Shown in pieces: positions 25,201-54,238 of a stretch of 61,042 nucleotides of DNA. Position numbers and translations under genes: made by a program. Numbering within the stretch: position 1 is the stretch's first letter; each line of letters begins with the position of its first letter. This DNA comes from a virus (Duplodnaviria > Caudoviricetes). The DNA is taken from the IMG/VR virus record IMGVR_UViG_3300042377_000298, positions 1-61,042 of that record. The stretch is one strand, 5' to 3'. The notes below the pieces were generated by a model. The model was given only the letters and a program-made list of their open reading frames with translations. It searched no databases and was not told the DNA's origin.

Positions 25201-28200
25201 AGCCAAATCAAGGAAATGGTTATCAAGTCTCTTTCTGAAAACAAATCATTATTAAAACTTATTAATGATGAGTTCATTGTTACTGATTTAGAATTAGCTG
25301 AATCTGATGTTGAGACTGGAAAGAAAATTCTTGATGGAAACATTGAAGGAAAAATTGAAGAAATCACATCTGAAATTGAAAGATTAACAAAAATTAGAAA
25401 TACAACTCAAGGTCACTCTACGCAATTATCCAAAACAGGATCTCCAAAAATTGGTAACGTGACGCTATTTGAAATACCAGCTTACAAATATCCAGATGAA
25501 AATGATGCAAGAAAGCGCATGAACATGGGCATGCCAGCAAGCAGAAAAGTCAATCTCAGATTGACAAGAAGCCTTAACGAGTCTGACTTAAGCACTGATC
25601 AAATAGCGCGCTTTGATGCTACGACTAGGGATGCTCGTATTATTAACGAAGCTATGAACATCTTTCTTGAAGAAGAGGGCGAGGTTGCTTACAAGGCGCT
25701 ATCCGAAGAAGTTGATTTGTATGGCGAAGGTTTCGACGTTAAGCAAAACATTCAAAACGTAATTGAATTAATACAACTCAAAAACAATCTTTCTGAAAAA
25801 ACAAATACTAAATTTGAATTAATGATTCAGGAAATGTCAAAGATTGACACAATTCTCAATGAAGCAGATCAGCCAGCAATTGAGCTATATGGTATGACGT
25901 TGCGTGACATGATCAAGTTGGGCTTGTCTCCAGCAACTTTAATTAATGAGAAGGGCAAAAAAGAAGTTATTAATATTGCAGACAAGTCTTCCACTCAGTC
26001 TGAAATCAATAGAATTAAACAAACTGCGTTATTTATTAAAAATGAAGCTGGGTTAGCGGTATTTATGCCGACAGATGGAAAACTTGTCGACCAGCCGGGA
26101 AGAAGTCATTTTCTTTATAGTCGATCAGCGCTGAATCATTTGCAAAGTTTCAAGAAAATCACTAAACAAAAAGGAAAAGCAGAGAGTTTGTTGAAAGACG
26201 CTATCTTTAGAGCCTCACGTGGCGCTACTGGATTTGACACATTCCTTAGAACACAAAGCCATGAAAATGTAGACTTTGATGCAAGCAAGCCAGTCAGTTC
26301 AGAACTTGCTGTTGCTACTGGTGTAAATCCAGCAATGACAAAAGGAGAGTTTGTTAAGACTGCTAAAAGACTCTTTAATGAATACTTCTTAAAAGAAATA
26401 GGCAACTACGTGTTTTCTTCATTTGCTAAAGGTATTGGGATTTATAGCACGATCAAAAAAACTGATCGCATGAATGATCAAGAAATTCAAGAAGCATTTG
26501 ATTCTGTTTACAGCTTTGCATCTGATGTAGCAAATGATGCTATATTGAAATCTTCTGGTTTTTCTGTTTTAACAAAAGCAAAACAGGACTACACAAATAA
26601 TGAAAAAGCGAAAATTGTTAAATCTGCTTACGATATTGCAATTAATGAGAACAAATTTTTAGCTCCAAATTCACATGCATCAAACAATATTTTGCTTAAT
26701 GAATCTATGTTTGAAGACATTATTACAATGTTGGAAAGTGATAAGTTCGCCTTGCTTAATAAAAACAAATCAGTAAGCGCATATGAAGTTGCTGCAATTA
26801 ATGCAATAGCAAGTGTATTTAGTAACGAAATTAATACGGCAAATAGCACTTCTGGCAAATTCTTTAGCTTTGATACAGCTATTACGCGTCTTGATTTACG
26901 TCAAAACTATTCAAGACTTTATTCGTTGCTTTACTCACAAGATATTTTCACTGATCTTCTTAGTGGTGTTGTTGATTCAGAGAAAAGAGACAGCAATGAT
27001 TTATTTACTCATTCAAATGCTTTAGTGAAACAAAAGTTCGCAAGAAGCTTTGGTTCTTATCAAAGGGCATTAAGTTTGCAAGGATTGATTGAGCAAGGTA
27101 TTAATGGAAATTCTGGAAGAAATAAATACTCAGCAAAATATGAGGAGTATCAAGACAGGATTGGAAAAGCAGCAAGTCAAATTGGAAATGATTTTGACCT
27201 AGGCTCACGTGCTTATATGGTGGCTGTGACAAAAGGAATTGTTGAAGCCAATAATAGAGATGGGGGAACTGATTTGGACTTGGCTTTGAAATTGCATTAT
27301 TTTGCTTCTGCTTACAACAATGGGATAAGAGATCATCGCCAATTGCTTAGAGACATTAAGGATTTCAAGAAAAATGGCAACATGTTTTCTCGCGCAGTTA
27401 AACTCTTTGATACTATTGGAAGAAAGCAATCAAGAGAAGACATGAACGTCAGCCTTATTAATAATTTAATTGGGGCGGAAATTGAATTAATTGCGCGAAG
27501 AGATCCAAAATCATTAACAAGACAAGAAGTTCAGTCCTATATCAATCAAATTGAAAATATTCTTTATGATGGATTTGACTCCAAAACAATTAGTGGAATG
27601 AACAATTATGCGAATGCATTATTGGAAGAATTTACTGGGATTTACGAAGGCCATAGAATTGCAAATGCTTTTGCTTCTGAAGAAACATTGCGTGGAATTG
27701 AAGAGGTTGTTGATCCTAAAATAAGCAAAACTGCAAAAACATTAAAAAATCCATATAGCGTTATTCCATTGCGTTTTGGGCATGTGAAAAATCCATTAAG
27801 TAAAAAAGATCCAAGTATTGGCAATGGATCTCCAACTATTGATAGCTTTGTGAACTTTGAGCAAAGTTTAATGAACTATAAGGGACGAACAATCTATGAC
27901 TTGCAAAAAGAAAGCTTTGTTCGCGTTTTACGTCCTTTAGACATGAACCCATTTACTGCTCCAGATCAAATTGCCAATGATGCAATTTATAGAATGTATT
28001 TGAATCCATCATATACTGTTATTCGCAAAATGCTTGGAGAGTATGGAGTTGATGTCAATGGAATTCCAAAAACAGAAAATGGACATTTGGTTGGAGCTAT
28101 AAAAGCACTTTACAATATAAGCAATGATCAAAGAATTGAAAAAATTGGTCAATATAATCAAATATCTGCTTACATTATAGATAAAATTAACACTGAAATT

Positions 28201-29766
28201 AAAAACGATATGCCAATGGATTTGGCTGATAGTTTGCTTGCTGATGCACTTCGCATTTCTAATGTTCATTTAATGGTGAAAACCTTGGCGAGTGTAACGC
28301 AAATCTTGACACAAGGAATTTTACCAGCATTAGCCAAATACCTTAATGTTAAAATTGGTAATTTTGCAGGACTGCATCAAAAAGATTCTGCAAGATTAAC
28401 AGAGGCTTACGCTTTGGCATTAAAAGATTATTTTAAGTCTAGCAGCGAGGGAGATGGCCGAAACTTTGTTAAAGAGAATAGCACTAATAGTTACAAGTGG
28501 AGAGCTGAAGGGGCTAATAAAAGAGATTCGCAAGTCAGCATGACCAAGTATGCAAGCCAAAATCATCTCACTTATTTAACAAGAGTTTTTGGAGCTTCAT
28601 TCAATAAACTTGGAGAAGGATTGCTGGATGCTACAATTGGAAAACCAGAAAGAGCACTGGTGCAAGCTATTTACATGTTTGAATTATTTAATGAACTGCA
28701 AAAAGACATGGGGCAAAACGCGCCAAAAACAATTGCAGAAATGATCAAAATGAATCCAGATCAATTTAGCACCTATGCTAAAACAAAAGCTGATACAATG
28801 GTCACTGACTTTATGGGCATTGGTGATAGAGCTAAAAAAGCTAGAATTTACAACCTACCTAGAAATAGGGCGGTAGAGACATTGTTATTGAACTATGTGA
28901 CTAGATATGGGAATCACGCGCTTACTGTTGGCCCGAATTTAATGGTCAACATGGATCAATTGTATAAGCAATTAAGCGGAACATACAGCGACAAGCAAAT
29001 GCGCAATGATGCACTTGAAAACGTTATTGGAACTGTTTTGCAAACATTGTTATTTAGGTTTGGTCAGGTCCAAGTGATGTTGCCAAACTTGATTTATTTG
29101 TTTTACGGCATTACTGGATTGCTTGGTGGTGATAAAGACGAGGATGAGGAAGATGCTACGCAAAAAACGCTGGATTTATTGCGTAGATTGGATGTTTATG
29201 GAGAGCCTGAACTTGAAGAGGATACATTTATGACAATACTTAGCAGAAGATTGAGAACTTATTTGCTACCGCAGCAATTTGCTGCTACTAAAAAAGAAAA
29301 TAGAACTGCTAAATTATTTGGATGGCAATTCAAACATAGTCCAATTCTTGAATCTAATTTAGGAGCGCTTAGAAAATCTGCATTAGATACACTTCCTGTT
29401 ATTTCTTATCTAAAGGCTGGGTCTGCTTTAAGCGTCCCACTGGGCAACAATTTTATTGATCTTACTTCTGAAATTTCAATGATGGGATTAAGAGGCGATA
29501 ATGTTGATTTCTCTGATATTGGTCGCATTGCATTTAAAACGGAAAATATAGCATCTGCTCCAGTTTTGTCTTTGCTTGAAAGCTATAAAGGAGTAATGAA
29601 CACTGCTTCTGTTCCGTTAAATTACTTTTTACCAAAAGAAGGAATGGAAGGTATTTCTGCTACAGAAATGCTTGAAGGAATGTTAGTATCACCTCTTGGT
29701 ACAAGAGAATATCGCCCAACATATTATGAGCGAATTAAAAATAAAGGTGGATGGGGGGACTATTAA
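13261..29766 (+). CDS. Giant (5501 aa) internal virion / polyvalent-type protein
   Basis: Uninterrupted 16.5-kb ORF. Gly/Ala-rich hydrophobic region around aa 470-850, HExxH (HENAH) near aa 1256 and EExxH (EELLH) near aa 1790, coiled coils. Confidence 0.75.
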   Translation: MSEISPINTENDKLPIDDQPNNATNITPVIAPLDQSIKQEASTAKAPKVPDVEKTNARRKTYEFLDIDPIDSLNVFNKVNKNEWSSADPSRRDEIASERLNELNQNLIAADPSTPSGRVEIPSLRKIIVDGKETEELVNVPASDSSGRLSKAGQDYYNQSSSLLSSAAKDEKGGLRINPLTGKTVSKIGSRLLTPYAKDEIDPERFSVNEEGIKYEKLNPEDVVDYAHVRRIYQARAKQAGISYKKLITELISPGESLDQLDVNRRIVSDIGYNAGTYEDGSSGEFVNDLELLAQIKNSKIGSENKEENEKLQAILTKSIARLKAEEGMGSKLVDLHDGQPIFNMEKIKNINDIEQALEQLPISKTEKQSLKLNFKTNFESQAVELIRKLDVGDQMTDLFRNNDGLEKLADYIDPETRKKLDIPDFRDFSSFESFTNSGLSAYDWLKQNSDLYDTNIISSSIEKILLGTLDSFDSTRVAVLSLGAGIAQAGMSVLPNTISEGLKGRELLEDARLGLAEGKAFFSEMKKGRAAQLGKWDLIGNEDSYINITSDDIFDAAGNIIEMYLTLGTSSAVKGLGLIGSRTLTVAASKELGKKAAVESTKMAAKLQGADSLLLRNIGKISKSGIEFKEGAKALWQNAEALNTAANVLKTSLYGSFTSAGGGIGEGYSRAIQAGKSEDEALIEATSTGLSNGLATFVAMTVMNGLFPSLGVEKGLIKASEGVGLRTSIRNTIARNKSSDSISKGLRELVKDKATLKGVPKGVADAMRGISKSQGIVGFGKSVTFGSIAEGIEEWGDEMLAPVINAYLLKNESARKQLETDGYWLGALKAGVIGMLMGGATSLGTKTSEGKAKAFELANQRMDSYIERVLPAYKGMQDELVSVKSTTAEGAEAIGTLRNILETGTTDQKVQALTELGKQKIQQLSFDANTKQEGVLKTPSTPQDSDTSKNPDAKGDPITPKEKTTTVIEKKKFDIPSKITNKQNNVNVPVQEESNLASFAYNQAHGLEIKDTNMPSPKLEVSGSSVFQKVGGNITVTSYNINGNEADLHSFEDTNGDTIFTNKTNLGKLLLKSHGQGVVLKNLSKVSNTDNVASLIKSSESNVDKNQTPEKDKASDPEVTEKDDSNKSTSEQDPLSTDTAPIEAEEKTEDIYDENKQVVGENKLKPALKKVYDKYRNYFNRKKIGIIIVTNASELENIPEFKNFKKTSMGFAGTINIGKSNQRDVIVIITDNIESQKASTPEASIETIFEDILEHENAHVITKRFNRTKKGNKLRKDFEEDLFNNQKLNEAMDEDYPSFSKQSNDTKFFEFVRTFVSGKLTNRTLSAMMSISPSMKKWIAGFIKFAKKELKNYRGAKTYLSAFEKFYIQEIKDDAALFKYSPSSTEAFKNFITNLISKVSPTKARKQGKLLTTKEIDFSNVDRYADAFTDFLRTGITDLTSPNDLVSKLVDILNGFSEESIGLGPESKKEIFNKVIEDWRNNETNTDILNALLDASNKIGSVDNAPHISDESTPASEMVLKATEERLAYNQYTRIRKTVADTLVVLVKNDTTATQKAVTEIDKPSDTQGNSASNAYILGRIDQATGEIIDLGFEVGDVVSVVNSSGDVIQHLVYVKSEIFIAPNGQKEARHEFLSGVVSENGKLSSFGIGLQTMFSDKFRKDFEESGLVDDMFAVESGNLKLDNVDKLLQFVFESLTNKAINSEGKNINSIEIAGKSYTFNDLFLFDITGKTSDANASPFYYKDGKIVVNIDALRTEFSFINDSLLKDSDNKKTIGLLIAQAVRTAIDEELLHHITTLTFGEDELVSLYNDLAENDRFSGLLNQIANAQGIYVSSEQFTDQQRYVIATEFLAFINQKSFDGATYADQYNQLLKSYASAKPDGKALATASLYGKRFKDILIARSATSLMAPRLIDMVNKLSVLKSEVMPKQSSSNMANVYANFNADAYTKSRGRMQQSIDNAFLKQYSAVNDLRTYLAESRLMANQILDFDFNNNTVSLSPEFRAVYQNKITAEELAELDDYFSRLNNDSVVREFLVTLSAARASLDAITEQVDVNNNDPDLGNRFQQATKNYNNLVLDYADIFLNKNLTKVDEFGRSFAVIGSELGGESFPVYSETSDNSVTVKFNADTSNVTIFTYDVNLFGYENQNPSNAINDRYEQRKKFADVNNDLEKAKTETLWFYGYRGRYTSSDRQNFPNKVSTIEGNAAFLGEEEFNFFYISRINGESFRLNNNPYSYTDFRKMMGFNPIDFKINSDGEKVFLNFNEVINKFIISDEELETGVSNTSTGESYTVTIRRMSESKLLKDSEPERQRIVLGSALQRFFGDTKNILTWFNKLEEIIGYERSSGDINVINEISGRETFASKFAKQLKYRMFNNRLIHGNGIHEKIDGETESDQSLYGMIKELQSAYYALFASITPPSDVKLFKSVGKNELSNAEVSNLLAKLPVFLEAIDSLNQDIGLARKAYTRFTSSYLLNTIKGDIRLIQEQNTEGLRANEELLRAIQYSFYDIQAMEDVEFLMDYRNNGGRNGINGIIALNLLDQLANIPSSAQNEYYVSNTPSKNVAYLLQTYAMYLENGVNPRTKDADGKSTYPTDNLVFNVIQKYGDKANENEDDFNADIDTKPSDTAETIGMSGVSPVTGRDEASQEAIDSARRESMHEEVKRMKSWTFHAAISIFQRIVGNDNDITIDGIDTSKTKLFFYLFAKIQNRPSMENDFNEEDFSQLKKDHQDLSNLMLDQLKALSNHYNMTNSPNTGFEQIANKVRKSSYTHPMEFLADVVEVIGAMERDYLDEVTDAGKTLAEYSQRELKKEIAKSESAVSVDKGATSFADTSKLQEKLESLIEGLNLELDSPSVSPSIIALYKTKISEIESEIESATQGAAQQVQGQSAVKRYIKKDTTELRQKLDFLNSQLDAFKTSLLEIRADNPKNPSIPGVMKEISNKQAEVKRATYELKNLTSENEKADAQIKTPIEKLENYYQALRSKLYAAQQKATTDDLGNAVSETTKRDIGNEGQFLRRPRVGETENIAVNELAADAQIESIMNRVGLMISKLQNLQEKPKSMLSYNQEQAQLVLDSMQEDSDKNKLSAGTIFYARTFKFKSNESLINDSLFMKFPLFSALIQSMPNLIVYQPDTNYNGKTNNLPDGAGLVQLSNGDNILYITNPDQLNNSKQAQILESLIVAQIKSESDNGARPSVLQQTIDQMAEVVQTQAKHAINMTPDRINVMMARAELAINKLTTIDNKVKKAIISRYKKSLEANAYDSIKLLTNRTARRSYIEDRVSNRTENVSRFFDQLVTADRANGKTSTIDNIQMIVDMFTNPDSYRLLSTFKSPDLDFNAYSPLPQFDALLNKALSIFAIPEVRSSAIHEIQIQKRLQLIDEANEGIEEDNVETDPNLIYEAIAENYNEENRTRKKLSKPEILNIIKQMSDSQIKGIIDPLIMERYFLTNRSPEAAKDLVEAFKQNTAQPDFLYRYVGSQLMKAMEPTLINADPSIKETSIFDNEFPTKSLSREARAYDVLFATNKPILLSTMMDPAIGTNNTFSNVEARTPTGDITNFYYGHSPMTETYRVNRKKVLLGMLLGKTETGKSLVDKLFDDQEELAMEVFSVTSSVSLDKFSGILGLMIKELPALIGDDVVARAEQIVDRIAVLARNNKEETKKRIAELSNQLEVIKQQGREFLLEKLIERNKEAAKVATSQLLFTPDENEENIGIYDSRSTLESIANRISNYLISEKLGLNRNSYNLAKKLETNANSYLLKYKNAISRISNYDQQIATLFDGDFSSDYTRNNTKYRFLVDGRNNLIDKAEIYKSEYVKLAAMDLMGELINPSHFFASPNSDVQGYIRSRLNEIGNYGKIKYRSVSPFDEDATSSAVFRGISGSLVTRGRKTNLMLGINKATRPEFASELLDGITKNEAKEMFASLGPDLLKNFANNKGYLQDNFKSEMVREFFSRLKQEGTISKFAKEMSQKIDVLKYNESQIKEMVIKSLSENKSLLKLINDEFIVTDLELAESDVETGKKILDGNIEGKIEEITSEIERLTKIRNTTQGHSTQLSKTGSPKIGNVTLFEIPAYKYPDENDARKRMNMGMPASRKVNLRLTRSLNESDLSTDQIARFDATTRDARIINEAMNIFLEEEGEVAYKALSEEVDLYGEGFDVKQNIQNVIELIQLKNNLSEKTNTKFELMIQEMSKIDTILNEADQPAIELYGMTLRDMIKLGLSPATLINEKGKKEVINIADKSSTQSEINRIKQTALFIKNEAGLAVFMPTDGKLVDQPGRSHFLYSRSALNHLQSFKKITKQKGKAESLLKDAIFRASRGATGFDTFLRTQSHENVDFDASKPVSSELAVATGVNPAMTKGEFVKTAKRLFNEYFLKEIGNYVFSSFAKGIGIYSTIKKTDRMNDQEIQEAFDSVYSFASDVANDAILKSSGFSVLTKAKQDYTNNEKAKIVKSAYDIAINENKFLAPNSHASNNILLNESMFEDIITMLESDKFALLNKNKSVSAYEVAAINAIASVFSNEINTANSTSGKFFSFDTAITRLDLRQNYSRLYSLLYSQDIFTDLLSGVVDSEKRDSNDLFTHSNALVKQKFARSFGSYQRALSLQGLIEQGINGNSGRNKYSAKYEEYQDRIGKAASQIGNDFDLGSRAYMVAVTKGIVEANNRDGGTDLDLALKLHYFASAYNNGIRDHRQLLRDIKDFKKNGNMFSRAVKLFDTIGRKQSREDMNVSLINNLIGAEIELIARRDPKSLTRQEVQSYINQIENILYDGFDSKTISGMNNYANALLEEFTGIYEGHRIANAFASEETLRGIEEVVDPKISKTAKTLKNPYSVIPLRFGHVKNPLSKKDPSIGNGSPTIDSFVNFEQSLMNYKGRTIYDLQKESFVRVLRPLDMNPFTAPDQIANDAIYRMYLNPSYTVIRKMLGEYGVDVNGIPKTENGHLVGAIKALYNISNDQRIEKIGQYNQISAYIIDKINTEIKNDMPMDLADSLLADALRISNVHLMVKTLASVTQILTQGILPALAKYLNVKIGNFAGLHQKDSARLTEAYALALKDYFKSSSEGDGRNFVKENSTNSYKWRAEGANKRDSQVSMTKYASQNHLTYLTRVFGASFNKLGEGLLDATIGKPERALVQAIYMFELFNELQKDMGQNAPKTIAEMIKMNPDQFSTYAKTKADTMVTDFMGIGDRAKKARIYNLPRNRAVETLLLNYVTRYGNHALTVGPNLMVNMDQLYKQLSGTYSDKQMRNDALENVIGTVLQTLLFRFGQVQVMLPNLIYLFYGITGLLGGDKDEDEEDATQKTLDLLRRLDVYGEPELEEDTFMTILSRRLRTYLLPQQFAATKKENRTAKLFGWQFKHSPILESNLGALRKSALDTLPVISYLKAGSALSVPLGNNFIDLTSEISMMGLRGDNVDFSDIGRIAFKTENIASAPVLSLLESYKGVMNTASVPLNYFLPKEGMEGISATEMLEGMLVSPLGTREYRPTYYERIKNKGGWGDY

Positions 29767-42315: not shown

Positions 42316-42723
42316 TTAACAAATAGCGTGTCTATAAGAGCGATTAATCATGGCGACTGGCGCCCAAACTTCAGTTATGTGGAGTTTTAATTGATTTCCG
42401 TTCATGTGGTAACAAGTAGAATTTTCTTCATATGCTATTTCTGCAATAACTTCTAAGCCATCATCAGAAATTGACGTTATTCGGCACGGAGCCATATAGC
42501 AATATAGGTTCTTTCCGTCAGTAATAGAATGAACAATTGGTTTACCAACTTCGCAATATCCATCAATTGATTCATAGTCAACTAATGGACCGTTCCACTC
42601 TGGCCAACAGATCTTTAGGATTTTGCGATGCTTTTTAACTTCTTCTTTATCTTCATGAATAATCTTTTGAGCAGTTGCCACAGCTTCTTCTTTGATGAAG
42701 AAGTCAAACATTGGGGTGTCCAT
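42316..42723 (-). CDS. Hypothetical protein
   Basis: Packed ORF in the operon. Confidence 0.55.
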   Translation of the reverse strand: MDTPMFDFFIKEEAVATAQKIIHEDKEEVKKHRKILKICWPEWNGPLVDYESIDGYCEVGKPIVHSITDGKNLYCYMAPCRITSISDDGLEVIAEIAYEENSTCYHMNGNQLKLHITEVWAPVAMINRSYRHAIC

Positions 42724-42726
42724 AAG

Positions 42727-42966
42727 TTAAACTAGATCAAGGATTGATCTCCCTGACATCATCATCATTAAAATATAAGGATGTGGTTCCTTATCTGGTG
42801 TGCCAAACATATATCCCAATAAGAAACTAAACTCTACAGTAGCTGCTTGTTTTGTTCTCTCGCCGCTTTTAGTTTTTTCTACTACTCCCGCTTGAGAAAA
42901 GACTTTTCTCAATCTTTCTTTTAAGGGTGCAAATTGATCTTCTTTTGTAATTGGTTCTTCAGTCAT
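42727..42966 (-). CDS. Hypothetical protein
   Basis: Packed ORF in the operon. Confidence 0.55.
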   Translation of the reverse strand: MTEEPITKEDQFAPLKERLRKVFSQAGVVEKTKSGERTKQAATVEFSFLLGYMFGTPDKEPHPYILMMMMSGRSILDLV

Positions 42967-42971
42967 ATTTA

Positions 42972-43328
42972 TTATTTTACTTCTAATGTTTGTTGTTGGA
43001 TTTTACCCACTTTAAGCATCCAAGGATCAGGATTTTGAAGCAACGGCCTGAGCCAGTCTTGAACAGTTGGAATATAACCGCAGTCTTCTGTTACATGCTG
43101 CTCTGATAAAAGCTTCACTGGTATTTTTTTGCCATGACTATTTGTAATGTAATGACCAAATACTAAGATTGACTGTTCAACTCCTTGTGCGTGATGACGT
43201 AAGGCTCTATGAGTCCAGTTACCAGTCAGTTGCTTTGTCTCATCAAACCATTGATGTAGGTCAATGTAGTCTTCTGGAGTGCCGCCCCACTTAATGCAGC
43301 TGCTTTCAGCGTGTTTGTAAGGAGTCAT
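42972..43328 (-). CDS. DUF6915-like protein
   Basis: PYKHAESS..KWGG.PEDY..LH.WFD...HRALRHH...EQHV.EDCG.IPT..DWL. Confidence 0.75.
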   Translation of the reverse strand: MTPYKHAESSCIKWGGTPEDYIDLHQWFDETKQLTGNWTHRALRHHAQGVEQSILVFGHYITNSHGKKIPVKLLSEQHVTEDCGYIPTVQDWLRPLLQNPDPWMLKVGKIQQQTLEVK

Positions 43329-43639
43329 AATACATCTAGTTTTACAGAGCCTTGATAAGTATCAGTTCTTTCCATAGTCCATTCCATATGGCTCACGGTA
43401 TTATTAACAAGATCATATTCAATATTATCTCCATAATCAGTTCCGTCTCCAGCGCCATTATATGGATAATGATCATCTGCCCATTCATATAACTCATCTC
43501 GCAGTTCTGGGCTGTAAGGATATGTCTGAATTTCTAAATTCCCGCAATCGCTTCCACCTGATAATTCAACAACAAATTGTTTAATTTCTGCTGCAAGTAG
43601 TTTTTGATGTAGTAGTTTTGGTAATGGTTGTATAGTCAT
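43325..43639 (-). CDS. DUF6878-like protein
   Basis: SGGSDCG motif, acidic, coupled to the DUF6915-like gene. Confidence 0.6.
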   Translation of the reverse strand: MTIQPLPKLLHQKLLAAEIKQFVVELSGGSDCGNLEIQTYPYSPELRDELYEWADDHYPYNGAGDGTDYGDNIEYDLVNNTVSHMEWTMERTDTYQGSVKLDVL

Positions 43640-43803
43640 TTTGTTTTTGGTCTATAGTTGTATGGGTATTCCCCGTAAAAAGCTTTATAATTTTCAATAA
43701 CTTCCATGTTTGTATGAGTGCATGACCCATCTTTCCACATGAGGGTTACCTTTTCTTGGTTTTTAGGTCTAGGTTTTTCTTTAGTTATTGCATTGCTACT
43801 CAT
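43636..43803 (-). CDS. Small hypothetical protein (55 aa, not in ORF track)
   Basis: MSSNAITKEK...RPKTK. ATGA coupling to the downstream gene. Confidence 0.45.
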   Translation of the reverse strand: MSSNAITKEKPRPKNQEKVTLMWKDGSCTHTNMEVIENYKAFYGEYPYNYRPKTK

Positions 43804-43820
43804 GTTTAATTTAGTTGGCT

Positions 43821-44495
43821 AAAAAAGGTGGCCGATGCGCGCGGCATTATGACTTTTCATCTTACAGTGTGTCGCTAGTATTACGTTTAGCTGTCCAGAG
43901 GTGAGAATTATTAGAGTTTCATCCGATCGACCTTTTATGTTCCTGCTTACCGTATGCAGGGCTAGCTTGACGCTACTAGCGGGTCCATCAGGAATCCTCT
44001 TTATCAGTGAGTTCCTAATGCCTAAGGCAGCGTCTTTCCGCTGTGTCTTTGTGGTGATGTGCTACTACGCTAAAGAGAAGATCGACCTTACCATTTACGG
44101 GGTGTCTCACTACTTAACCAAGGGAGCCAAACGAAACTCGTTTTCAGGAAAGCTATCCCATTGCTTTAGTGATTAGCGAAATCACCTTGCATTGATAAAT
44201 GGTTCTCACGGTAATCAAAGCCGAATTACATTTACCCTCTGAACTTTCACATGATTGATGCTCCTCTCACATGCTACAACGTCACGATTTGCTCTTGTCC
44301 CACTCATTATAGGATGGCTGCTTCTAAGCCAACCTTTCACCACACTCGCACCCACTGTTCAGGTCGCTCAACATCCACCCAAGCTTGCTGTTGGACGTAT
44401 ATCCTAAGTAGAGACTTACAGGTATTGTTTACTCAGTTGCCCTCAATGCAATAAGCGCGAGTGTAGTGACATGCTAAACGGCATGTCAGCGTTTA
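43821..44495 (-). ncRNA. Large structured ncRNA candidate containing a split 23S rRNA H42-H44 (uL11 site) mimic
   Basis: No credible ORF, many helices. AGGUUGGCUUAGAAGCAGCCAUCCU at 44335-44311 and GCGUAGUAGC at 44070-44061, closed by GUGGUGA/UCACCAC. U-tract at the 3' end. Confidence 0.8.
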
Positions 44496-44497
44496 TC

Positions 44498-44544
44498 GAA
44501 CATGTTGATGCAATCAACCTTGCGGTGATTGATCTTTTCTATTC
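44498..44544. repeat. attC-like hairpin site 1
   Basis: GAACA-N4-GAT-g-CAATCA-a-CC TTGC GG-TGATTG-ATC-N5-TATTC. Confidence 0.7.
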
Positions 44545-44674
44545 GGAATATTAATTAATTACACAATCATCTAAAGCAAAGCTAATTTCAATTTATTTAG
44601 TTTTAATTTTTATATTTTTATTTGCTTTTTTGATTTTAGCCAACTAAAGTTTGCTTGTGGACAGAACTGCCATA

Positions 44675-44941
44675 ATGAAGAAACTTGGATTGCAAGGTTT
44701 TAACAAGCCAAAGCGAACTCCATCACACCCAAAGAAATCTCATGTAGTCATGAGTAAAGAGGGCGACAAGACTAAGCTGATTCGTTTTGGTGAACAAGGT
44801 GCTAGTGTGGCAGGAAAGCCTAAAGCTGGCGAGTCTGAGCGAATGAAGGCAAAGCGCAAGTCGTTTAAGGCTAGACATGCACGTAACATTGCAAAAGGAA
44901 AGATGTCAGCGGCGTGGTGGGCCTCAAAAGTCAAATGGTAG
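44675..44941 (+). CDS. Small basic conserved phage protein
   Basis: 'NKPKRTP.HPKKSHVV...KLIRFG.QG...RKSFKARH...SAAWW..KW'. Confidence 0.75.
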   Translation: MKKLGLQGFNKPKRTPSHPKKSHVVMSKEGDKTKLIRFGEQGASVAGKPKAGESERMKAKRKSFKARHARNIAKGKMSAAWWASKVKW

Positions 44942-44952
44942 TATAATTTCTT

Positions 44953-45072
44953 ATGATGAATAAAAAAATGGCCGGATACGGCAAACCGATGGTAGCAGCT
45001 AAATCAGCTGTTAAAAAAGTGGCTAAGAAAATGGCTCCAGCAGCTAATAAACTTGCCAAGAAGATGAAATAA
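44953..45072 (+). CDS. Lys/Ala-rich micro-protein (39 aa, not in ORF track)
   Basis: MMNKKMAGYGKPMVAAKSAVKKVAKKMAPAANKLAKKMK, followed by a terminator. Confidence 0.55.
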   Translation: MMNKKMAGYGKPMVAAKSAVKKVAKKMAPAANKLAKKMK

Positions 45073-45078
45073 TAACCT

Positions 45079-45115
45079 AGCGTAGCCTCGTAACTGGGGC
45101 TGCGCTTTTCTTTTT
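45079..45115 (+). terminator. Rho-independent terminator
   Basis: AGCGTAGCCTC GTAACT GGGGCTGCGCT followed by TTTCTTTTT. Confidence 0.7.
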
Positions 45116-45209
45116 ATGAAAAACACTAAAAGCACAGTTCAATTTGTTAAGCAACCAAAATCAATAGCTAAAAAAACATCAACATATCGACAGTAAGTTT
45201 ACAAAAAAC

Positions 45210-45584
45210 TTAAACTAATGATATGGCTTTTCCTTTTTTGTCTTTATTGGATTGGCTTCTATGCGATTCTGTGTCTATTGGAATGAAACACAACAAATCT
45301 CCTAATTTATTAATACCAGCATTGGATAACTTGTGGCGATATGACTTTTTGTTTCTATCGTTTCTTGTTTCTTCTGAGATAAGCGCCCACTGTGAGCGTT
45401 TTAGCTGCCCTGCTGCTGTCTCTCCTGACATTCCAAGGACTTTTGACACTTCTGTAGACGTAACCCACTGATCTGTCTCTCCAACCAGTTCTGCGATAGC
45501 CATTAGCATGAAAGCTTCTTGGTAATTAATAGCGTTTTTGTTTATGTTTCTTGCAAAACAGTTTAATGCTTGTATTTTGTTCAT
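45210..45584 (-). CDS. Winged-HTH (MarR-like) regulator, paralogue A
   Basis: MNKI.A...F.RN, helix-turn-helix, wing ending 'Y..KLSNAG'. Confidence 0.6.
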   Translation of the reverse strand: MNKIQALNCFARNINKNAINYQEAFMLMAIAELVGETDQWVTSTEVSKVLGMSGETAAGQLKRSQWALISEETRNDRNKKSYRHKLSNAGINKLGDLLCFIPIDTESHRSQSNKDKKGKAISLV

Positions 45585-45595
45585 TTTTTTGTTGG

Positions 45596-45955
45596 TTAAT
45601 ATTGTTTTTTATATGTTGCTATGTCCATTAGCTCTTGAATGCCAATTATTTTGAAATCTAACAAGTTATTTACTGTTTCAATGCCTTTTGCGTTAAGCCA
45701 ATAATACGACTTGTGGACTTTGCCTGTTTTTCTACGCTTGAATTCGAGCCAGAACTTTAGCCGACTAATCGTTGATCTCATTTCCATGCTGGTCATTAAG
45801 TTAACCTCAGCTTGAGTAGCTTCAGGAACTAGCCCAATTGCTGCTTTATTAGCGCATATACCAGCAACTGCCACAATAATGCAGGCTTCTTTGACCGTTA
45901 AGCCATAAGCCATGCTGTTTCGAGTGAATGATGTTATAGCGTCTATTTTGTTCAT
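45596..45955 (-). CDS. Winged-HTH (MarR-like) regulator, paralogue B
   Basis: MNKIDA..SFTRN...KSYYWLNAKG, similar to paralogue A. Confidence 0.6.
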   Translation of the reverse strand: MNKIDAITSFTRNSMAYGLTVKEACIIVAVAGICANKAAIGLVPEATQAEVNLMTSMEMRSTISRLKFWLEFKRRKTGKVHKSYYWLNAKGIETVNNLLDFKIIGIQELMDIATYKKQY

Positions 45956-46257
45956 GATATTTCTTGATCAATTGGTGCTTGTCTTGCGTATAAAGTATCA
46001 CCATCTACCAAAACTGAATAATTACCAACATCTTTACTATCAGGCAACAATGGCAACTCAATAGTTACAACTCTTGCGCAATACAGTGAGGTGTTTGCTA
46101 TTTTAATAACTTCTTCATTAGCTTTTTCTGGCAATCCTGTTCTCCATGGATAACCAGTGTTGCTCATGTGCATTGTCCATATTGTTGATCCTCTTGGTCT
46201 GACGAAGATAAGGTGTATTTTTCTTAGTTGCATAAGTTTGGTGTGACTAGGTTCCAT
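45952..46257 (-). CDS. Hypothetical protein
   Basis: Coupled ORF. Confidence 0.5.
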   Translation of the reverse strand: MEPSHTKLMQLRKIHLIFVRPRGSTIWTMHMSNTGYPWRTGLPEKANEEVIKIANTSLYCARVVTIELPLLPDSKDVGNYSVLVDGDTLYARQAPIDQEIS

Positions 46258-46445
46258 ATTTCTTTTCTAAGTCTTCTTGATTTTGCTTCTGACTCTTCTA
46301 GCATTTCAGTGAATTTGATTAATGCGTTTGCTAATTTGCAATAATTGCTTGCTAATTCGCCAGCTTCTTCAGCATTTAGCAAAATGTCTTCAAAGCCATT
46401 ATTAATTTGTTTGTAAATGTTAATGATAATATCTTCACGATTCAT
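46224..46445 (-). CDS. Hypothetical protein
   Basis: Coupled ORF. Confidence 0.5.
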   Translation of the reverse strand: MNREDIIINIYKQINNGFEDILLNAEEAGELASNYCKLANALIKFTEMLEESEAKSRRLRKEIWNLVTPNLCN

Positions 46446-46720
46446 AATTTATTCTTTCTTATACTGTGTTTTAACTCAATTAATTCATCTTCAAGTTGTT
46501 TGATTCTCTTGGTTTGGCTTGCAATTATTTCTTTAGCAAATTCGTCAGCAAAAAGCCTTTTGTTTTTTGGAATTGATTCGTTTAAGCGATCATATTTAGA
46601 CGCAATAGCATTAAGCTCGCGTTCTAATTCTCTGCATAAATCAAGAGTTATTGGCGCACTGCTCCAAGAATCTTGCCATGATTTGAAATAAGCATCTGTC
46701 CTAGGTGTGTCTTCAATCAT
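46442..46720 (-). CDS. TPRTD/LEREL coiled-coil protein
   Basis: DTPRTD...RELERELN. Confidence 0.65.
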   Translation of the reverse strand: MIEDTPRTDAYFKSWQDSWSSAPITLDLCRELERELNAIASKYDRLNESIPKNKRLFADEFAKEIIASQTKRIKQLEDELIELKHSIRKNKL

Positions 46721-47036
46721 TTTTCTTCAGTTTGCAAGAAATAATTAATAGCTTTCCGTCTACTGATTTCACGTCTAGCCCATACATTTTCAGCACTACC
46801 TCCAGCGCGTCCCGTTGTTCTTTAAGCCTGATAAGGTTAGACCTGCACTCGGTCGCGTCATGGCCATCGAGTAACTCAGCTAGGCAGTTGTAGTCCTTTT
46901 GTGTTTCCATCAGCTCCTCTGTCGCATCGGCAAGCTCGAGTTCTAGATTTTTGCTTAAGCGTTTAGCGCATTGCAAATGCTCTAAATAACCGCTAAAGTG
47001 CTGCCATACGGAATCTGTTCTTGGTGTCTCGTTCAT
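46713..47036 (-). CDS. TPRTD/LEREL coiled-coil protein
   Basis: ETPRTD...NLELELA. Confidence 0.65.
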   Translation of the reverse strand: MNETPRTDSVWQHFSGYLEHLQCAKRLSKNLELELADATEELMETQKDYNCLAELLDGHDATECRSNLIRLKEQRDALEVVLKMYGLDVKSVDGKLLIISCKLKKND

Positions 47037-47053
47037 TTTGTTTCGTTTGTTGG

Positions 47054-47326
47054 TTATTCAGAACATTCCGCATCAGGCAACTCTGGGCGTGCCTGTGCTT
47101 GGCTGTTCGGCTGAATAAATTCGTGCGGGAACTCCTCGCTGAATCCGTAGTGTTCCCTGAACTCTTCCCCCGTCATCGGATCGTTTTTTGCAGCCACCAA
47201 TCCGTCTGTGGCATCAACCGTTTTCAGGACATATCTGCGTTCCATCTTATTGCGGTCGATAGTGACCACAAAAGGCCACGGTGGTGCGCAACCTTCGGGC
47301 GCGTCGGAGTTGGTTTGTGTTTTCAT
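47054..47326 (-). CDS. Hypothetical protein (cassette-like)
   Basis: GC-richer ORF reading through hairpin site 2. Confidence 0.55.
   Translation of the reverse strand: MKTQTNSDAPEGCAPPWPFVVTIDRNKMERRYVLKTVDATDGLVAAKNDPMTGEEFREHYGFSEEFPHEFIQPNSQAQARPELPDAECSE
47061..47108. repeat. attC-like hairpin site 2
   Basis: GAACA-N4-GCA-t-CAGGCA-a-C TCTGGGC G-TGCCTG-TGC-N5-TGTTC. Confidence 0.7.
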
Positions 47327-47392
47327 AGCAAAAAAGAACGCCACGAGACCTGTTGCGCGGGGGCAAGGAAGGTTTCTCGTGGCTAGGTAAGT

Positions 47393-47420
47393 ATTTTAAC
47401 ATGGAAAATCAGCATTGCAA
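47393..47420 (-). promoter_or_regulatory. Sigma70-like promoter
   Basis: TTGCAA-N16-TAAAAT with extended -10 TG, followed by a GCCACGAGA...TCTCGTGGC leader hairpin. Confidence 0.45.
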
Positions 47421-47453
47421 GCCTAACAATTTGCGCATTCCTCGCATACGTCA

Positions 47454-47639
47454 TCATTTTGTTCTGCTAATGTTTTCCAAGATAAAAAAAGCTAGCTTAT
47501 CTCTACCGTAAAAGCAATTATCGCAAAAACAGTTACTTCTTGGCAATGGCTTTTCTGATTCTTCCAAATAAAAAAGTGCGTTATTTGGATTTCTTTCATC
47601 ATACACGCAAAGATATGTTAGTATTTCTTCGATGTTCAT
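47454..47639 (-). CDS. Hypothetical protein
   Basis: LC.YD.RNP...CFCDNCFYGR motif. Confidence 0.6.
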   Translation of the reverse strand: MNIEEILTYLCVYDERNPNNALFYLEESEKPLPRSNCFCDNCFYGRDKLAFFILENISRTK

Positions 47640-47791
47640 GCTTCATCCTCCTGTTCGCGTTCTCCCATGAAATCGTGCATCTGCTCGATCTTGTCCATTT
47701 TCATCTGCCATTCCCACTCGTCGTTCTCGCGGTTGAGTCGATCTGTTAGGTTTAGCATTGACACGGCATAATTTGCTTCTGGTTCGTTCAT
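47636..47791 (-). CDS. Small hypothetical protein (51 aa, not in ORF track)
   Basis: MNEPEANY...EDEA, ATGA-coupled. AACAACTATG start context. Confidence 0.5.
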   Translation of the reverse strand: MNEPEANYAVSMLNLTDRLNRENDEWEWQMKMDKIEQMHDFMGEREQEDEA

Positions 47792-47811
47792 AGTTGTTTT
47801 AGTTAAAGTTA

Positions 47812-47858
47812 GAACATGTCGATGCGCTCAACCTTTCGGTGAGCGATCTTTGCTGGTC
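47812..47858. repeat. attC-like hairpin site 3
   Basis: GAACA-N4-GAT-g-CGCTCA-a-CC TTTC GG-TGAGCG-ATC-N5-TGGTC. Confidence 0.7.
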
Positions 47859-48085
47859 GCGTGGAAAGATTCTAGCGCGTCACGGATCAGTTCCGCTTTG
47901 CGTTTGCATGAGGTCAGGCAGATTCGATCTTGCCCCCGATGGTCGCCCACTTCCCATTCGTGCCACTTTTGCAGCGGGGCTAGATTTTTCAGCAGGTAGC
48001 CGGGCTGAGCGATGAAGAAACGCGAACAATGCACGGCATGAGCGGATTTCTTCTTCGTGGTTTTCGTGGCTTTTTTCGCGCTCAT
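47828..48085 (-). CDS. Hypothetical protein (cassette-like)
   Basis: GC-richer ORF. Start lies inside degenerate site 4 and stop inside site 3. Confidence 0.55.
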   Translation of the reverse strand: MSAKKATKTTKKKSAHAVHCSRFFIAQPGYLLKNLAPLQKWHEWEVGDHRGQDRICLTSCKRKAELIRDALESFHATSKDRSPKG

Positions 48086-48101
48086 GTCTGTGCTGTGTCG
48101 A

Positions 48102-48374
48102 TCATAAACAATCCTCCTCTGCAATCTCATCCATTGTTGGTAATTTGCCTTTTTTATCGCCAAACTCTGAAGCATACGCTTTTTCATTTTCCGTTTGAGG
48201 TAGTTCGCCGCAAAATTCGCATCGTTTTTCTTTGAATGATTTCGCAATCTCGGAAAGCTCGCGCTCTAGTTGCTTGGCGTGGTCTTCTAGCTCTATAATG
48301 TAATCGAGAGCATTTCTTTTGCGTTCTTGAGTCGGCTTTATAGCGTCCGTTCTCGGTGTCGGTGTGTCGTTCAT
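48102..48374 (-). CDS. TPRTD/LEREL coiled-coil protein with CxxC
   Basis: TPTPRTDA...AKQLERELS, CEFCG. Confidence 0.65.
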   Translation of the reverse strand: MNDTPTPRTDAIKPTQERKRNALDYIIELEDHAKQLERELSEIAKSFKEKRCEFCGELPQTENEKAYASEFGDKKGKLPTMDEIAEEDCL

Positions 48375-48622
48375 AGTTCGTTCGGGGTTGTTATTTCCCA
48401 AGGCAGCAGCGTTTCATCAGCTTTTTCTAGGGTGTCGCATGATAGGTCGCGGTATTTCTCGGCTAGGCGACGCGCTTCGTCCCGCTGCTCGGTGACGGCG
48501 GTAAGCTCGCGTTCTAGGAATTGCCTTTTATCATCAAGTTCTATCCACGCTTTACGCAGTCCTCTTGATTCAGATCTTTCGGCATTTATCGCACCGTGGT
48601 CTGGGTCGTTACATTCATTCAT
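48371..48622 (-). CDS. LEREL coiled-coil protein
   Basis: FLERELTAVTEQRDEAR. Confidence 0.6.
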   Translation of the reverse strand: MNECNDPDHGAINAERSESRGLRKAWIELDDKRQFLERELTAVTEQRDEARRLAEKYRDLSCDTLEKADETLLPWEITTPNEL

Positions 48623-48726
48623 AGTTCGTTTTAGTTTGTTAGATATTTATTTTTTGATTGGAAAATTCGCCCTGTCGTGATTCTCTGGGCTAGAGTGTTT
48701 TTAACCGTCATGACTCGGTGCTGGAG

Positions 48727-48969
48727 TTATGTGCGACTTCTGAAGAATCGCGTATTGTAGCTGTTTCCTGGCTTCGCCTCGCGGAACTCTACGCCTTCCA
48801 TTAGACTACTTCCATGATCCGATTCGACTTTTGCTCTTGAAAGCCATAAGTCTCTCTTGAATCCTACAGAAGATACTAGGTACTTCTGCTCATCTGCATT
48901 GAAGCCTACTATTTTTTTATCGTAGTAGACTGTTCCTATTTCTAGCGGTGTATCGTCAAATATGCTCAT
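48727..48969 (-). CDS. Hypothetical protein
   Basis: ORF in the - strand operon. Confidence 0.55.
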   Translation of the reverse strand: MSIFDDTPLEIGTVYYDKKIVGFNADEQKYLVSSVGFKRDLWLSRAKVESDHGSSLMEGVEFREAKPGNSYNTRFFRSRT

Positions 48970-49001
48970 GGTCGTGCGTTGGTTAATTCTATAGCATTGT
49001 T

Positions 49002-51906: not shown

Positions 51907-52841
51907 CCAAGTTTAGCGTAGCATTGATTATGGCTATTAAGCTGATATGCTCAATAAAGGCAAAGAAACAGCTAAAATACGCCTAAACAGAGCACACAAT
52001 GGCACTTTCTAGCCCACTTTGACCACTGACTAGGGTGGAGACAGCGGAAACGTGTTACCCCCTGCTTAAATCGGCTTGTAGGAGCACTGTGGGCATGGAT
52101 GTTTAGATGGGATTGCCCTAGGTATTTGCCTGAATGTGGTGATGATGTGTGGTTTATTGGGGGAATAGCAGTACAGATCAACCAAACACTGGTTTATTGC
52201 AGTAGCAAGGGATTTTGTGTTTACGCCCCGTGTGGAGACAAGTCTTGCTGTACTGTTGCCTTAGATTATTGTTGTTACATTGTATTCTTATTAATGAAGA
52301 CAAGTATCCTTACAACCTCCCTAGTGCGTTCCGAATGAAAAGCATTATCTACTCGGAACTTTCTACGTCCATTAAAGAACGACACCTTAGGAGTCAACCT
52401 CCTGCCAGCTTGTTTAGTCTCCCGCTGACACCCGTTAGCCGCTTTCCAGCTGTTCAGGTCTAGTTGAGAGTGTGGAAGATTCACGTCTTCTCGCGTAGCC
52501 CTCTCTTTTATACTGTGATCGGGGAGCGAACAGTGGGCAATGAAAAACCCGTCCGAGATACTACCTTCGAACGGGCTTTCCAACCATGAAACACAAGCAC
52601 GGAAATCTTTGTTATACGGTAGTATCGCAAGAACGAGCAACGATTAATGCATTAATAGTAACTTGTCAACATTTATTTTCTTTGCCTGTTGCATTACCAC
52701 CAAGGGCACTATTAGTGACCTGTCTTTGCCTGCTGATCCTGTGCTGTTAGAGAATTGGATAAGTTAAGTTGTTCTCTGTAATGCGCTTTGCACCCAGACC
52801 TAAGCCCACAAGGTTGTTACGCCCTGTGAGCTACGGTCTGA

Positions 52842-53387: not shown

Positions 53388-53502
53388 AGTTAAATACTCT
53401 GTTTTAGCCAACTAAAGTGCGCGAGCAAACACCTTAGCTTCTACTTAACCTTAAGCAGACTACAACCCACCACCATTGGCTGATGATGGGCTGTGTGTCT
53501 GA

Positions 53503-54165: not shown

Positions 54166-54238
54166 GACGCAACCCCCATCACCTTTCGGTGACAGGACGC
54201 TTTGGGCTTAATGTCTGTTTAACGTCGCCCAAACGACG
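54166..54238 (-). ncRNA. Pistol self-cleaving ribozyme
   Basis: CGUCG UUUGGG CGACG UUAAACAG ACA UUAAG CCCAAA GCG [10-bp P3, GAAA loop] GU UG matches pistol architecture. P2 is imperfect. Confidence 0.8.

Follow-up and report, generated by a model that had tools for sequence, protein, structure and literature searches.

Analysis of a virus genome of 61,042 bases (class Caudoviricetes; the entire IMG/VR virus record IMGVR_UViG_3300042377_000298, from lake water, referred to below as the window) revealed three hairpins, S1, S2 and S3, which share one geometry on the minus strand, the strand that encodes the surrounding genes, and which belong to a family of 20 copies in 11 freshwater phage records. 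This family matches nothing in Rfam or in the literature searched and is previously undescribed. The copies are located at cistron junctions, most of them are entered in one fixed frame by the open reading frame (ORF) upstream, and similarity between otherwise unrelated phages often stops at their edges. The hairpins are interpreted here, tentatively and with a confidence that approaches even without reaching it, as sense-strand RNA elements linked to translation, which also serve as conserved patches for exchange as do the promoter-early stem-loops (PeSLs) of T4-type phages. The preliminary description of this DNA, made from its letters without database searches, had seen in them an integron attC-like family of recombination sites; they are not classed as attC sites here.

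Three hairpins of one geometry on the minus strand

The coordinates and the common layout given for the three hairpins in the preliminary description were verified, and the hairpin structure itself stands; it had been written on the plus strand and belongs to the minus, gene-sense strand. The scores listed below were obtained with R1, a covariance model of the family that was built from 10 sequences.

44498..44544, minus strand: hairpin S1, 47 nucleotides (nt), without an upstream ORF; R1 63.7 bits, E 4e-12
47061..47108, minus strand: hairpin S2, 48 nt, wholly read through by ORF 47054-47344; R1 88.9 bits
47812..47858, minus strand: hairpin S3, 47 nt, with the stop codon of the upstream ORF in its 3' arm; R1 66.5 bits

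Read on the gene strand, each hairpin has an outer helix of 5 base pairs (bp), GAACA/UGUUC, followed by a 5x4-nt internal loop and a 3-bp helix. Above these, a single base bulges from the 3' arm before a 6-bp helix, beyond which come a bulged U, another one or two pairs and a loop that varies, being GCAA in S1, GAAA in S3 and seven bases long in S2. Folded as RNA, the minus strand reaches -16.0, -20.8 and -15.9 kcal/mol for S1, S2 and S3, respectively (z-scores of -3.6, -3.1 and -2.3), as against z-scores of -0.9, -0.8 and -1.1 for RNA of the plus strand. Folded as DNA, the same minus strand yields -6.3, -12.0 and -8.5 kcal/mol (z -1.15, -3.0 and -1.6), with S3 failing to form its outer helix. 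No U tract follows S1, S2 or S3.

A loose pattern scan returned 14 matches where 4.6 were expected, and the only exact matches were S1, S2 and S3. Similarly, the family model run with filters off over positions 30000-61042 detected these three hairpins only (E 1e-18 to 1e-12), the next match having an E-value of 0.98. A degenerate fourth site at 48024-48099 and half-sites at 47638-47656 and 47460-47464, all previously suggested to lie at gene ends, cannot be retained as relatives, since none of them gave an R1 match with E up to 10 and filters off; the interval 48016-48107 folds into a different, long-range pairing (z -1.98).

A family of hairpins in freshwater phages

The first pattern scan of IMG/VR delivered 19 loci, seven of which had true homologs, and three further pattern scans followed the construction of R1. 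One IMG/VR scan gave 91 stretches, from which 78 new loci and nine more were scanned with R1, and three loci held six true copies; another gave four new loci (L107-L110) with no member among them. Strict-pattern scans found no members by R1 among 63 loci in metagenome contigs and none among 31 loci in bacterial and archaeal genomes, six Vibrio matches in the latter being a conserved coding gene. Related loci were also sought via a 401-amino-acid neighbor protein, and none of the six pattern matches obtained in this way was confirmed. One candidate, L231 (19.2 bits, E 0.099), was rejected on inspection.

The resulting 20 copies occur one to three per genome and are always co-oriented with the genes. 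S2 has near-identical copies in six other records, L185 has three copies about 0.85 kb apart, and two copies in G001 (G001a and G001b) lie 340 nt apart. Decay is seen in copy G002a, which has three unpaired cells and lies inside a fused ORF. A short degenerate copy, consisting of the outer and the 3-bp helix only, is present on the reverse strand of L008 at about 1460-1510, orthologous to a full copy in L106; this degenerate copy was missed by R1, so that 20 is a minimum count for the family.

In the 20-copy alignment, which was fitted to the model and thus favors structure, 97.0% of the cells pair and 8 of the 15 pairs show changes on both sides (42 cells), and compensatory changes are also visible in the earlier MAFFT alignment. 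The covariation score of the alignment was matched by none of 500 shuffles, sliding the partner columns as a control lowered pairing to 21-41%, and RNAalifold independently predicted the same helices from the alignment. The covariation between arms first noticed in the three hairpins of the window is therefore upheld across the family. Nine columns are invariant in all 20 copies. The terminal part of the hairpin measures 3-7 nt across the family, once about 50 nt, and one copy has a 40-nt loop insert; including 22 nt of flank, matches to the family model are mostly 68-73 nt long.

Regarding known RNAs, a search of the whole window with Rfam 15 at gathering thresholds gave a Pistol ribozyme at 54168-54238 as the sole match, and a search of 43000-49000 with E up to 5 gave four weak matches, none of them on the hairpins. 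The K-turn, the tetraloop receptor and the hairpin ribozyme were considered and dropped on inspection of the sequence, the hairpin ribozyme also being without an Rfam match. A translational bypass or frameshift signal was likewise rejected, the flanking repeat of the S2-type copies being out of phase with the downstream gene.

Reading frame and position at gene junctions

The non-Watson-Crick cells of the 20 copies comprise eight G-U and no A-C when read on the gene strand, and the reverse when read on the other strand. In 18 of the 20 copies, an ORF on the same strand, open for 39-253 codons, enters the motif in the frame that reads the conserved AAC as a codon; one of the remaining two has an in-phase stop just before the motif, and the other, S1, is preceded by only 4 open codons. 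In the eight copies with all three frames computed, the two alternative frames stay open for 0-52 codons. Up to the codon before AAC, the upstream proteins show no relationship to each other, except those of S3 in the window (W_S3) and G004, which have one gene in common, and those of L008 and L011, which have another.

Within this fixed frame the serine codon is only AGC and the glutamine codon only CAA; with the third positions of the conserved codons fixed, the constraint acts on nucleotides and not on the peptide. The position of the stop codon varies, being found in the 5' arm, in the loop, in the 3' arm or in an ATGA overlap with the next gene. In the S1- and S3-type copies the 3' arm comes after the stop codon, yet it still covaries. 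Downstream, an ATG follows UGUUC by 7-26 nt in 14 of the 20 copies and lies in the terminal loop of one more, and the leaders after the hairpins are rich in A and C.

Mosaicism and homology breakpoints

The motif-bearing records have almost nothing else in common: their G+C contents range from 39 to 49%, and at a BLASTP E-value of 1e-5 only a few small neighboring ORFs are common to these phages. The sites had been proposed to bound exchanged genes, with the breakpoints between related phages as the check, and the outcome of this check is positive. Homology ends do cluster at the motif edges, with 30 of 155 ends of high-scoring segment pairs (HSPs) at most 6 nt from an edge across all records, compared with about 0.5 expected by uniform chance; HSPs made up of the motif alone inflate this count.

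The individual borders differ in kind. In 20 of 21 S2-type pairs, similarity stops 0-2 nt from the 5' edge, and in 10 of the 21 it extends over 14-38 nt of the downstream leader, so that the hairpin travels with the leader. S3 of the window and its counterpart in G004 follow genes that are 91% identical together with the hairpin, with 206 nt in common upstream, and here similarity ends 1 nt past UGUUC, at the 3' edge. Between L206 and L219 a whole gene is replaced, the replacement ending exactly at the 5' edge and having a left border without the motif, and between L106 and L008 a replacement ends at the 3' edge. Further homology borders lie inside genes, for example at 47279.

In the lake runs, one contig shows the G001-type arrangement from 47110, the 5' edge of S2, and another shows a block replacement of 42586-44618 with a border 75 nt from S1, each observation coming from a single contig at a likeness threshold of 85. 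No joint at a hairpin was present among those listed for four DNA runs. Separately, an island at 48346-48516, which comprises the end of ORF 48371-48622 and the junction to the next gene, is about 92% identical in G002 and G005 and has sharp loose ends in two lake runs; it contains no hairpin.

Comparison with integron attC sites

As described in the available parts of the published accounts, attC sites are 57-142 nt long (PMC2727003), have the heptamers RYYYAAC/GTTRRRY (PMC5027507) and fold with two or three extrahelical bases, an unpaired central spacer and a variable terminal structure (PMC2727003, PMC5027507). The extrahelical bases on the arm opposite AAC comprise a conserved G in L'' and, 6-8 nt past this G, a T (PMC2727003), recombination takes place on the bottom strand between A and C (PMC2727003, PMC5027507), and G:T mispairs are enriched on this functional strand (PMC5027507).

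The phage hairpins are similar to this architecture in that their basal helix has AAC in 17 and GUU in all 20 copies, in the unpaired spacer formed by the 5x4-nt internal loop between the 5-bp and 3-bp helices (20 of 20), and in two single extrahelical bases opposite AAC, which are spaced by 7 nt and of which the distal is U in 19 of 20 copies. Further likenesses are the varying length of the terminal part, the location at ORF ends and the mosaic gene content around the sites. In contrast, the attC heptamers are present in none of the 18 readable copies, the base after GUU being C in 17 and U in one where the attC heptamer requires a purine; the core of 47-48 nt falls below the published size range; and the proximal extrahelical base is A in 11, C in seven and U in two copies, and never G. 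More of the primary sequence is conserved than in attC sites, as the nine invariant columns indicate, and the breakpoints fall at both edges and inside genes instead of at one crossover point. The usual integron cassette consists of an ORF followed by attC, and its recombining bottom strand is antisense to the ORF. In the phage hairpins, the strand that resembles the bottom strand is the sense strand of the ORF, the reading frame is fixed, and the S2-type hairpin is linked to the downstream leader and not to the upstream ORF.

An integrase had already been reported as missing from the window, and this was confirmed: no tyrosine recombinase (PF00589) was detected in the window (G000) or in any of five other motif-bearing records (G001-G004 and G006), while the controls were positive in 14 of 14 genomes. 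Attempts to take attC sites by pattern from integron-proximal Vibrio loci were unclear and were replaced by the annotated integron of Vibrio phage MK672802, from which 12 attC sites were used to build the model R2. This model found 21 and 13 sites in two Vibrio genomes carrying an integron integrase and, as a model of Vibrio-type attC only, none at E up to 10 in G000, G001 and G002. Conversely, R1 recognizes none of the Vibrio attC sites. Thus, the likeness to a folded attC bottom strand seen in the preliminary description is retained, and the identification as attC is not, in view of the heptamers, the size, the first extrahelical base, the orientation, the integrase and the reciprocal models.

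Neighboring genes and genome context

Between about 51.4 and 30.5 kb, most genes of the phage are encoded on the minus strand. The features that adjoin the hairpins are the following.

47054..47344, minus strand: ORF upstream of S2; 95 open codons upstream, the last 18 codons being the S2 hairpin
47037..47060, minus strand: 24-nt leader, rich in A and C, that separates S2 from the ATG of ORF 46713-47036
46713..47036, minus strand: gene after S2, starting 24 nt past it; paralog of the MN-x-TP..PRTD type, no Pfam family
48024..48099, minus strand: proposed fourth site; not a family member
47828..48085, minus strand: ORF upstream of S3, ending within S3; no Pfam family
47792..47811, minus strand: 20-nt leader that separates S3 from the ATG of ORF 47636-47791
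43804..44497, minus strand: ORF-poor, GC-richer non-coding RNA (ncRNA) region downstream of S1; context, outside the hairpin family

A Pfam search of 10 small neighboring ORFs gave nothing above the cut-offs, and RNase III (PF14622) was found in none of five records. The part of ORF 47054-47344 that is common to its G001 homolog is internal, 47098-47279 only. Several small paralogous proteins begin with MN-x-TP..PRTD and continue as a coiled coil; they are encoded at 46442-46720, 46713-47036 and 48102-48374 on the minus strand and at 9333-9689 of L031. A tail encoded by the hairpin joins the upstream ORF of G002a and of L008 in frame to a gene of this type or to another downstream gene. Directly before the start of ORF 47054-47344, a hairpin at 47345-47390 on the minus strand (-21 kcal/mol, z -5.1) is followed by a U run and resembles an intrinsic terminator placed midway along the early operon.

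Regarding the ORF-poor region, S1 does stand directly 5', on the gene strand, of 43804-44497, in agreement with the preliminary description, which had placed this site at the 5' end of the ncRNA. The first approximately 65 nt of the ncRNA recur in record G002 (window 44339-44502 and L031 17171-17290) as two blocks that are 86% and 100% identical. The G002 copy lies directly after a protein gene, is not preceded by a hairpin and runs on into different sequence; no tRNA was found at this stretch by ARAGORN. In four of four lake runs, contig depth rises to 76-298 at 44005-44338, especially at 44301-44335, with nearly all other bins in single figures. The loose ends at 44005-44338 read like ribosomal RNA, so that the ncRNA contains here a near-identical counterpart of a bacterial 23S rRNA segment, and about 50 nt of this interval match unannotated DNA of the Pseudomonas phages pf16 and UNO-G1W1 with 88-90% identity.

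The same early region of the minus strand has other structured elements. The Pistol ribozyme match at 54168-54238 (minus strand) covers the full-length model and scores 61.6 bits against a gathering score of 34.5. Two long hairpins on the minus strand at 52795-52840 and 53456-53501 have a CAGAC/GUCUG base and G-U-rich upper stems (-35.4 and -28.7 kcal/mol, z -6.7 and -4.9, respectively); their geometry is unlike that of the junction hairpins, and they look more like RNase III substrates than the junction hairpins do.

At the level of the whole genome, 11 deposited phage records in INPHARED match this phage in small pieces only and none is a relative, and its large proteins are mostly without a known family. 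A single ORF of 5501 amino acids at 13261-29766 on the plus strand has no Pfam family at E up to 0.01 and two weak PHROG matches only (E 0.003-0.006). A Shine-Dalgarno-like word is present upstream of only 3 of the 64 ATG-started ORFs of at least 90 amino acids in the whole window, and the leaders are A-rich. This combination suggests a host that initiates translation without Shine-Dalgarno pairing, for example a member of the Bacteroidota.

Interpretation of the hairpins

Taken together, the strand asymmetry, the greater stability as RNA than as DNA and the fixed frame point to a role at the RNA level that is linked to translation. The hairpin would act on the gene-sense strand, most likely in the form of RNA, as part of polycistronic early and middle transcripts. 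When folded, it would abut the initiation region of the downstream cistron and might be bound by a conserved host factor, base-specific recognition being suggested by the invariant bases of the internal loop, the basal helix and the bulged U. Ribosomes ending the upstream ORF would melt the hairpin, so that expression or processing of the downstream cistron may be tied to translation of the upstream one. A plausible variant would be cleavage by a double-strand-specific RNase or protection of a new 5' end. In start regions that lack a Shine-Dalgarno word, local mRNA structure should matter for initiation, and the pistol ribozyme and the two long G-U-rich hairpins are further RNA devices on the same strand of the same early region. 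As a block that is 80-99% identical in otherwise unrelated phages of the same lakes, the element would in addition provide a homology patch for gene swaps, as a by-product and in the manner of a PeSL.

Besides attC sites, two known systems offer the closest comparison. In the early genes of phage T7, RNase III processing hairpins lie between cistrons and are intercistronic and untranslated. The phage hairpins are similar to these in having about 16-20 bp and an asymmetric internal loop and in lying between the cistrons of an early polycistronic transcript, but the upstream ORF reads into or through them. The PeSLs of T4-type phages are described, in the available part of the report, as short conserved intergenic stem-loop motifs that act as exchange points for sequences otherwise unrelated, in hyperplastic early regions and as composite units of terminator and promoter (PMC4122927). 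Like PeSLs, the hairpins are short conserved stem-loop motifs at which replacements between phages begin or end, as the 30 of 155 HSP ends indicate; unlike PeSLs, they lack a U tract, overlap the upstream coding frame and are common to mutually unrelated phages. A promoter and terminator scan did not place the hairpins among its predicted sites, and it found eight sigma-70-like sites where 11.0 were expected, although the promoter type of the host may differ.

Several observations weigh against a translation-linked RNA element. The sequence was not found in any RNA run, and the motif-bearing phages have no common protein at a BLASTP E-value of 1e-5 except for the small neighboring ORFs. S1 is without an upstream ORF, and coupling therefore cannot be its role. 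A purely structural coupling device would need neither invariant bases nor two bulges, and no binding factor was identified. The fixed frame is not predicted, because one or more of the other frames would likewise close shortly after the motif. The 8 to 0 excess of G-U over A-C is a small count in which some cells are common by descent, and it identifies the strand and not the molecule, because G:T mispairs are enriched on the active bottom strand of attC sites as well. The attC-like geometry itself is unexplained by an RNA role.

This geometry is accounted for if the hairpins are attC-like sites on folded single-stranded DNA, with the sense strand as the bottom strand and with a host integron integrase or another hairpin-recognizing tyrosine recombinase that cuts the AAC of the 5' arm; the exchanged cassettes would then begin with a hairpin and end with an ORF without its own stop codon. 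The match to the attC bottom strand extends to the distal T/U and the G:T mispairs (PMC2727003, PMC5027507, in the parts available), the stop of similarity at the 5' edge in 20 of 21 S2-type pairs with the hairpin kept alongside the downstream leader is what such cassettes would leave, and the arrays in L185 and in G001 (G001a and G001b) carry roughly one ORF between neighboring copies. Virulent phages have been reported to contain attC clusters that lack an integrase, and five of six tested sites recombined with IntI1 according to the available part of Qi et al. (PMC9892861), so that the idea of recombination has precedent and is not categorically new. This explanation is nevertheless considered unlikely, in view of heptamers present in 0 of 18 copies with C or U after GUU in all 18, a core of 47-48 nt, a first extrahelical base that is never G and ORFs on the side of the supposed bottom strand. 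Breakpoints also occur at the 3' edge (W_S3/G004 and L106/L008), inside genes (47279) and at motif-free left borders (L206/L219), the 42586-44618 replacement has its border 75 nt away from S1, PF00589 is absent from the window and the five other records, the reciprocal models do not cross-detect (34 Vibrio sites by R2), the DNA folds are weak, and a fixed frame is again not predicted. Integron-like exchange carried by the phages themselves, using a GAACA/UGUUC core on the coding strand and a recombinase from the host or a co-infecting element, by which unrelated lytic lake phages would trade stop-less, frame-fixed ORFs, is improbable for the same family of sites.

Sharp edges on both sides with unrelated flanks, ends that are 5-bp inverted repeats, near-identical S2-type copies across records with 39-49% G+C and no common genes, and decayed copies such as G002a and the short form in L008 would also fit a selfish or passive palindromic repeat, similar to miniature inverted-repeat transposable elements (MITEs), repetitive extragenic palindromes (REPs) or Rickettsia palindromic elements (RPEs), which spreads among co-infecting phages, is tolerated in frame at ORF ends and supplies only homology. 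Rickettsia palindromic elements do occupy ORFs in frame, and this counts in favor of such a repeat. The small number of copies (one to three per genome), co-oriented at cistron junctions by a start codon, looks like selection for position, however, and the compensatory changes across subtypes show long-term upkeep of the pairing. No target-site duplication was evident in the flanks examined, no target-site duplication with an empty site was found, and neither a Y1 transposase (PF01797) in five records nor a tyrosine recombinase was detected, so that a selfish repeat is regarded as a similarly unlikely explanation. A DNA-hairpin promoter, or a start signal at the DNA level, of the type used by the virion RNA polymerase of phage N4 would fire the unit that directly follows it, the ncRNA in the case of S1 and genes in the case of S2 and S3. 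It would suit the position of S1 at the head of a unit without an upstream ORF on its strand, the leaders of 7-26 nt to the next ATG, with a start at the foot of the hairpin, and the presence of a 5501-amino-acid protein of no known family. The N4-type promoter hairpin forms on the template strand, whereas the wobble pairs of the phage hairpins favor the non-template (sense) strand by eight to none; the motif-bearing phages have no common large protein as a candidate polymerase, and the upstream ORFs read through the element. A search for PF00940 gave no match in the window and is uninformative, its control being positive in 0 of 14 genomes. Such a promoter is very improbable.

If the recombination reading were true, the range of integron-like cassette exchange would widen to include lytic phages and a new core sequence. 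If, as tentatively preferred here, the hairpins are RNA elements, they would represent a new portable signal between the genes of one transcript, used by unrelated freshwater phages whose hosts seemingly start translation without Shine-Dalgarno pairing, a setting in which the expression of internal cistrons is little known. The fixed frame and the invariant unpaired bases would offer a route to the host factor. The element marks gene swaps between phage lineages to the nucleotide, and mosaicism within lake communities is thereby directly testable.

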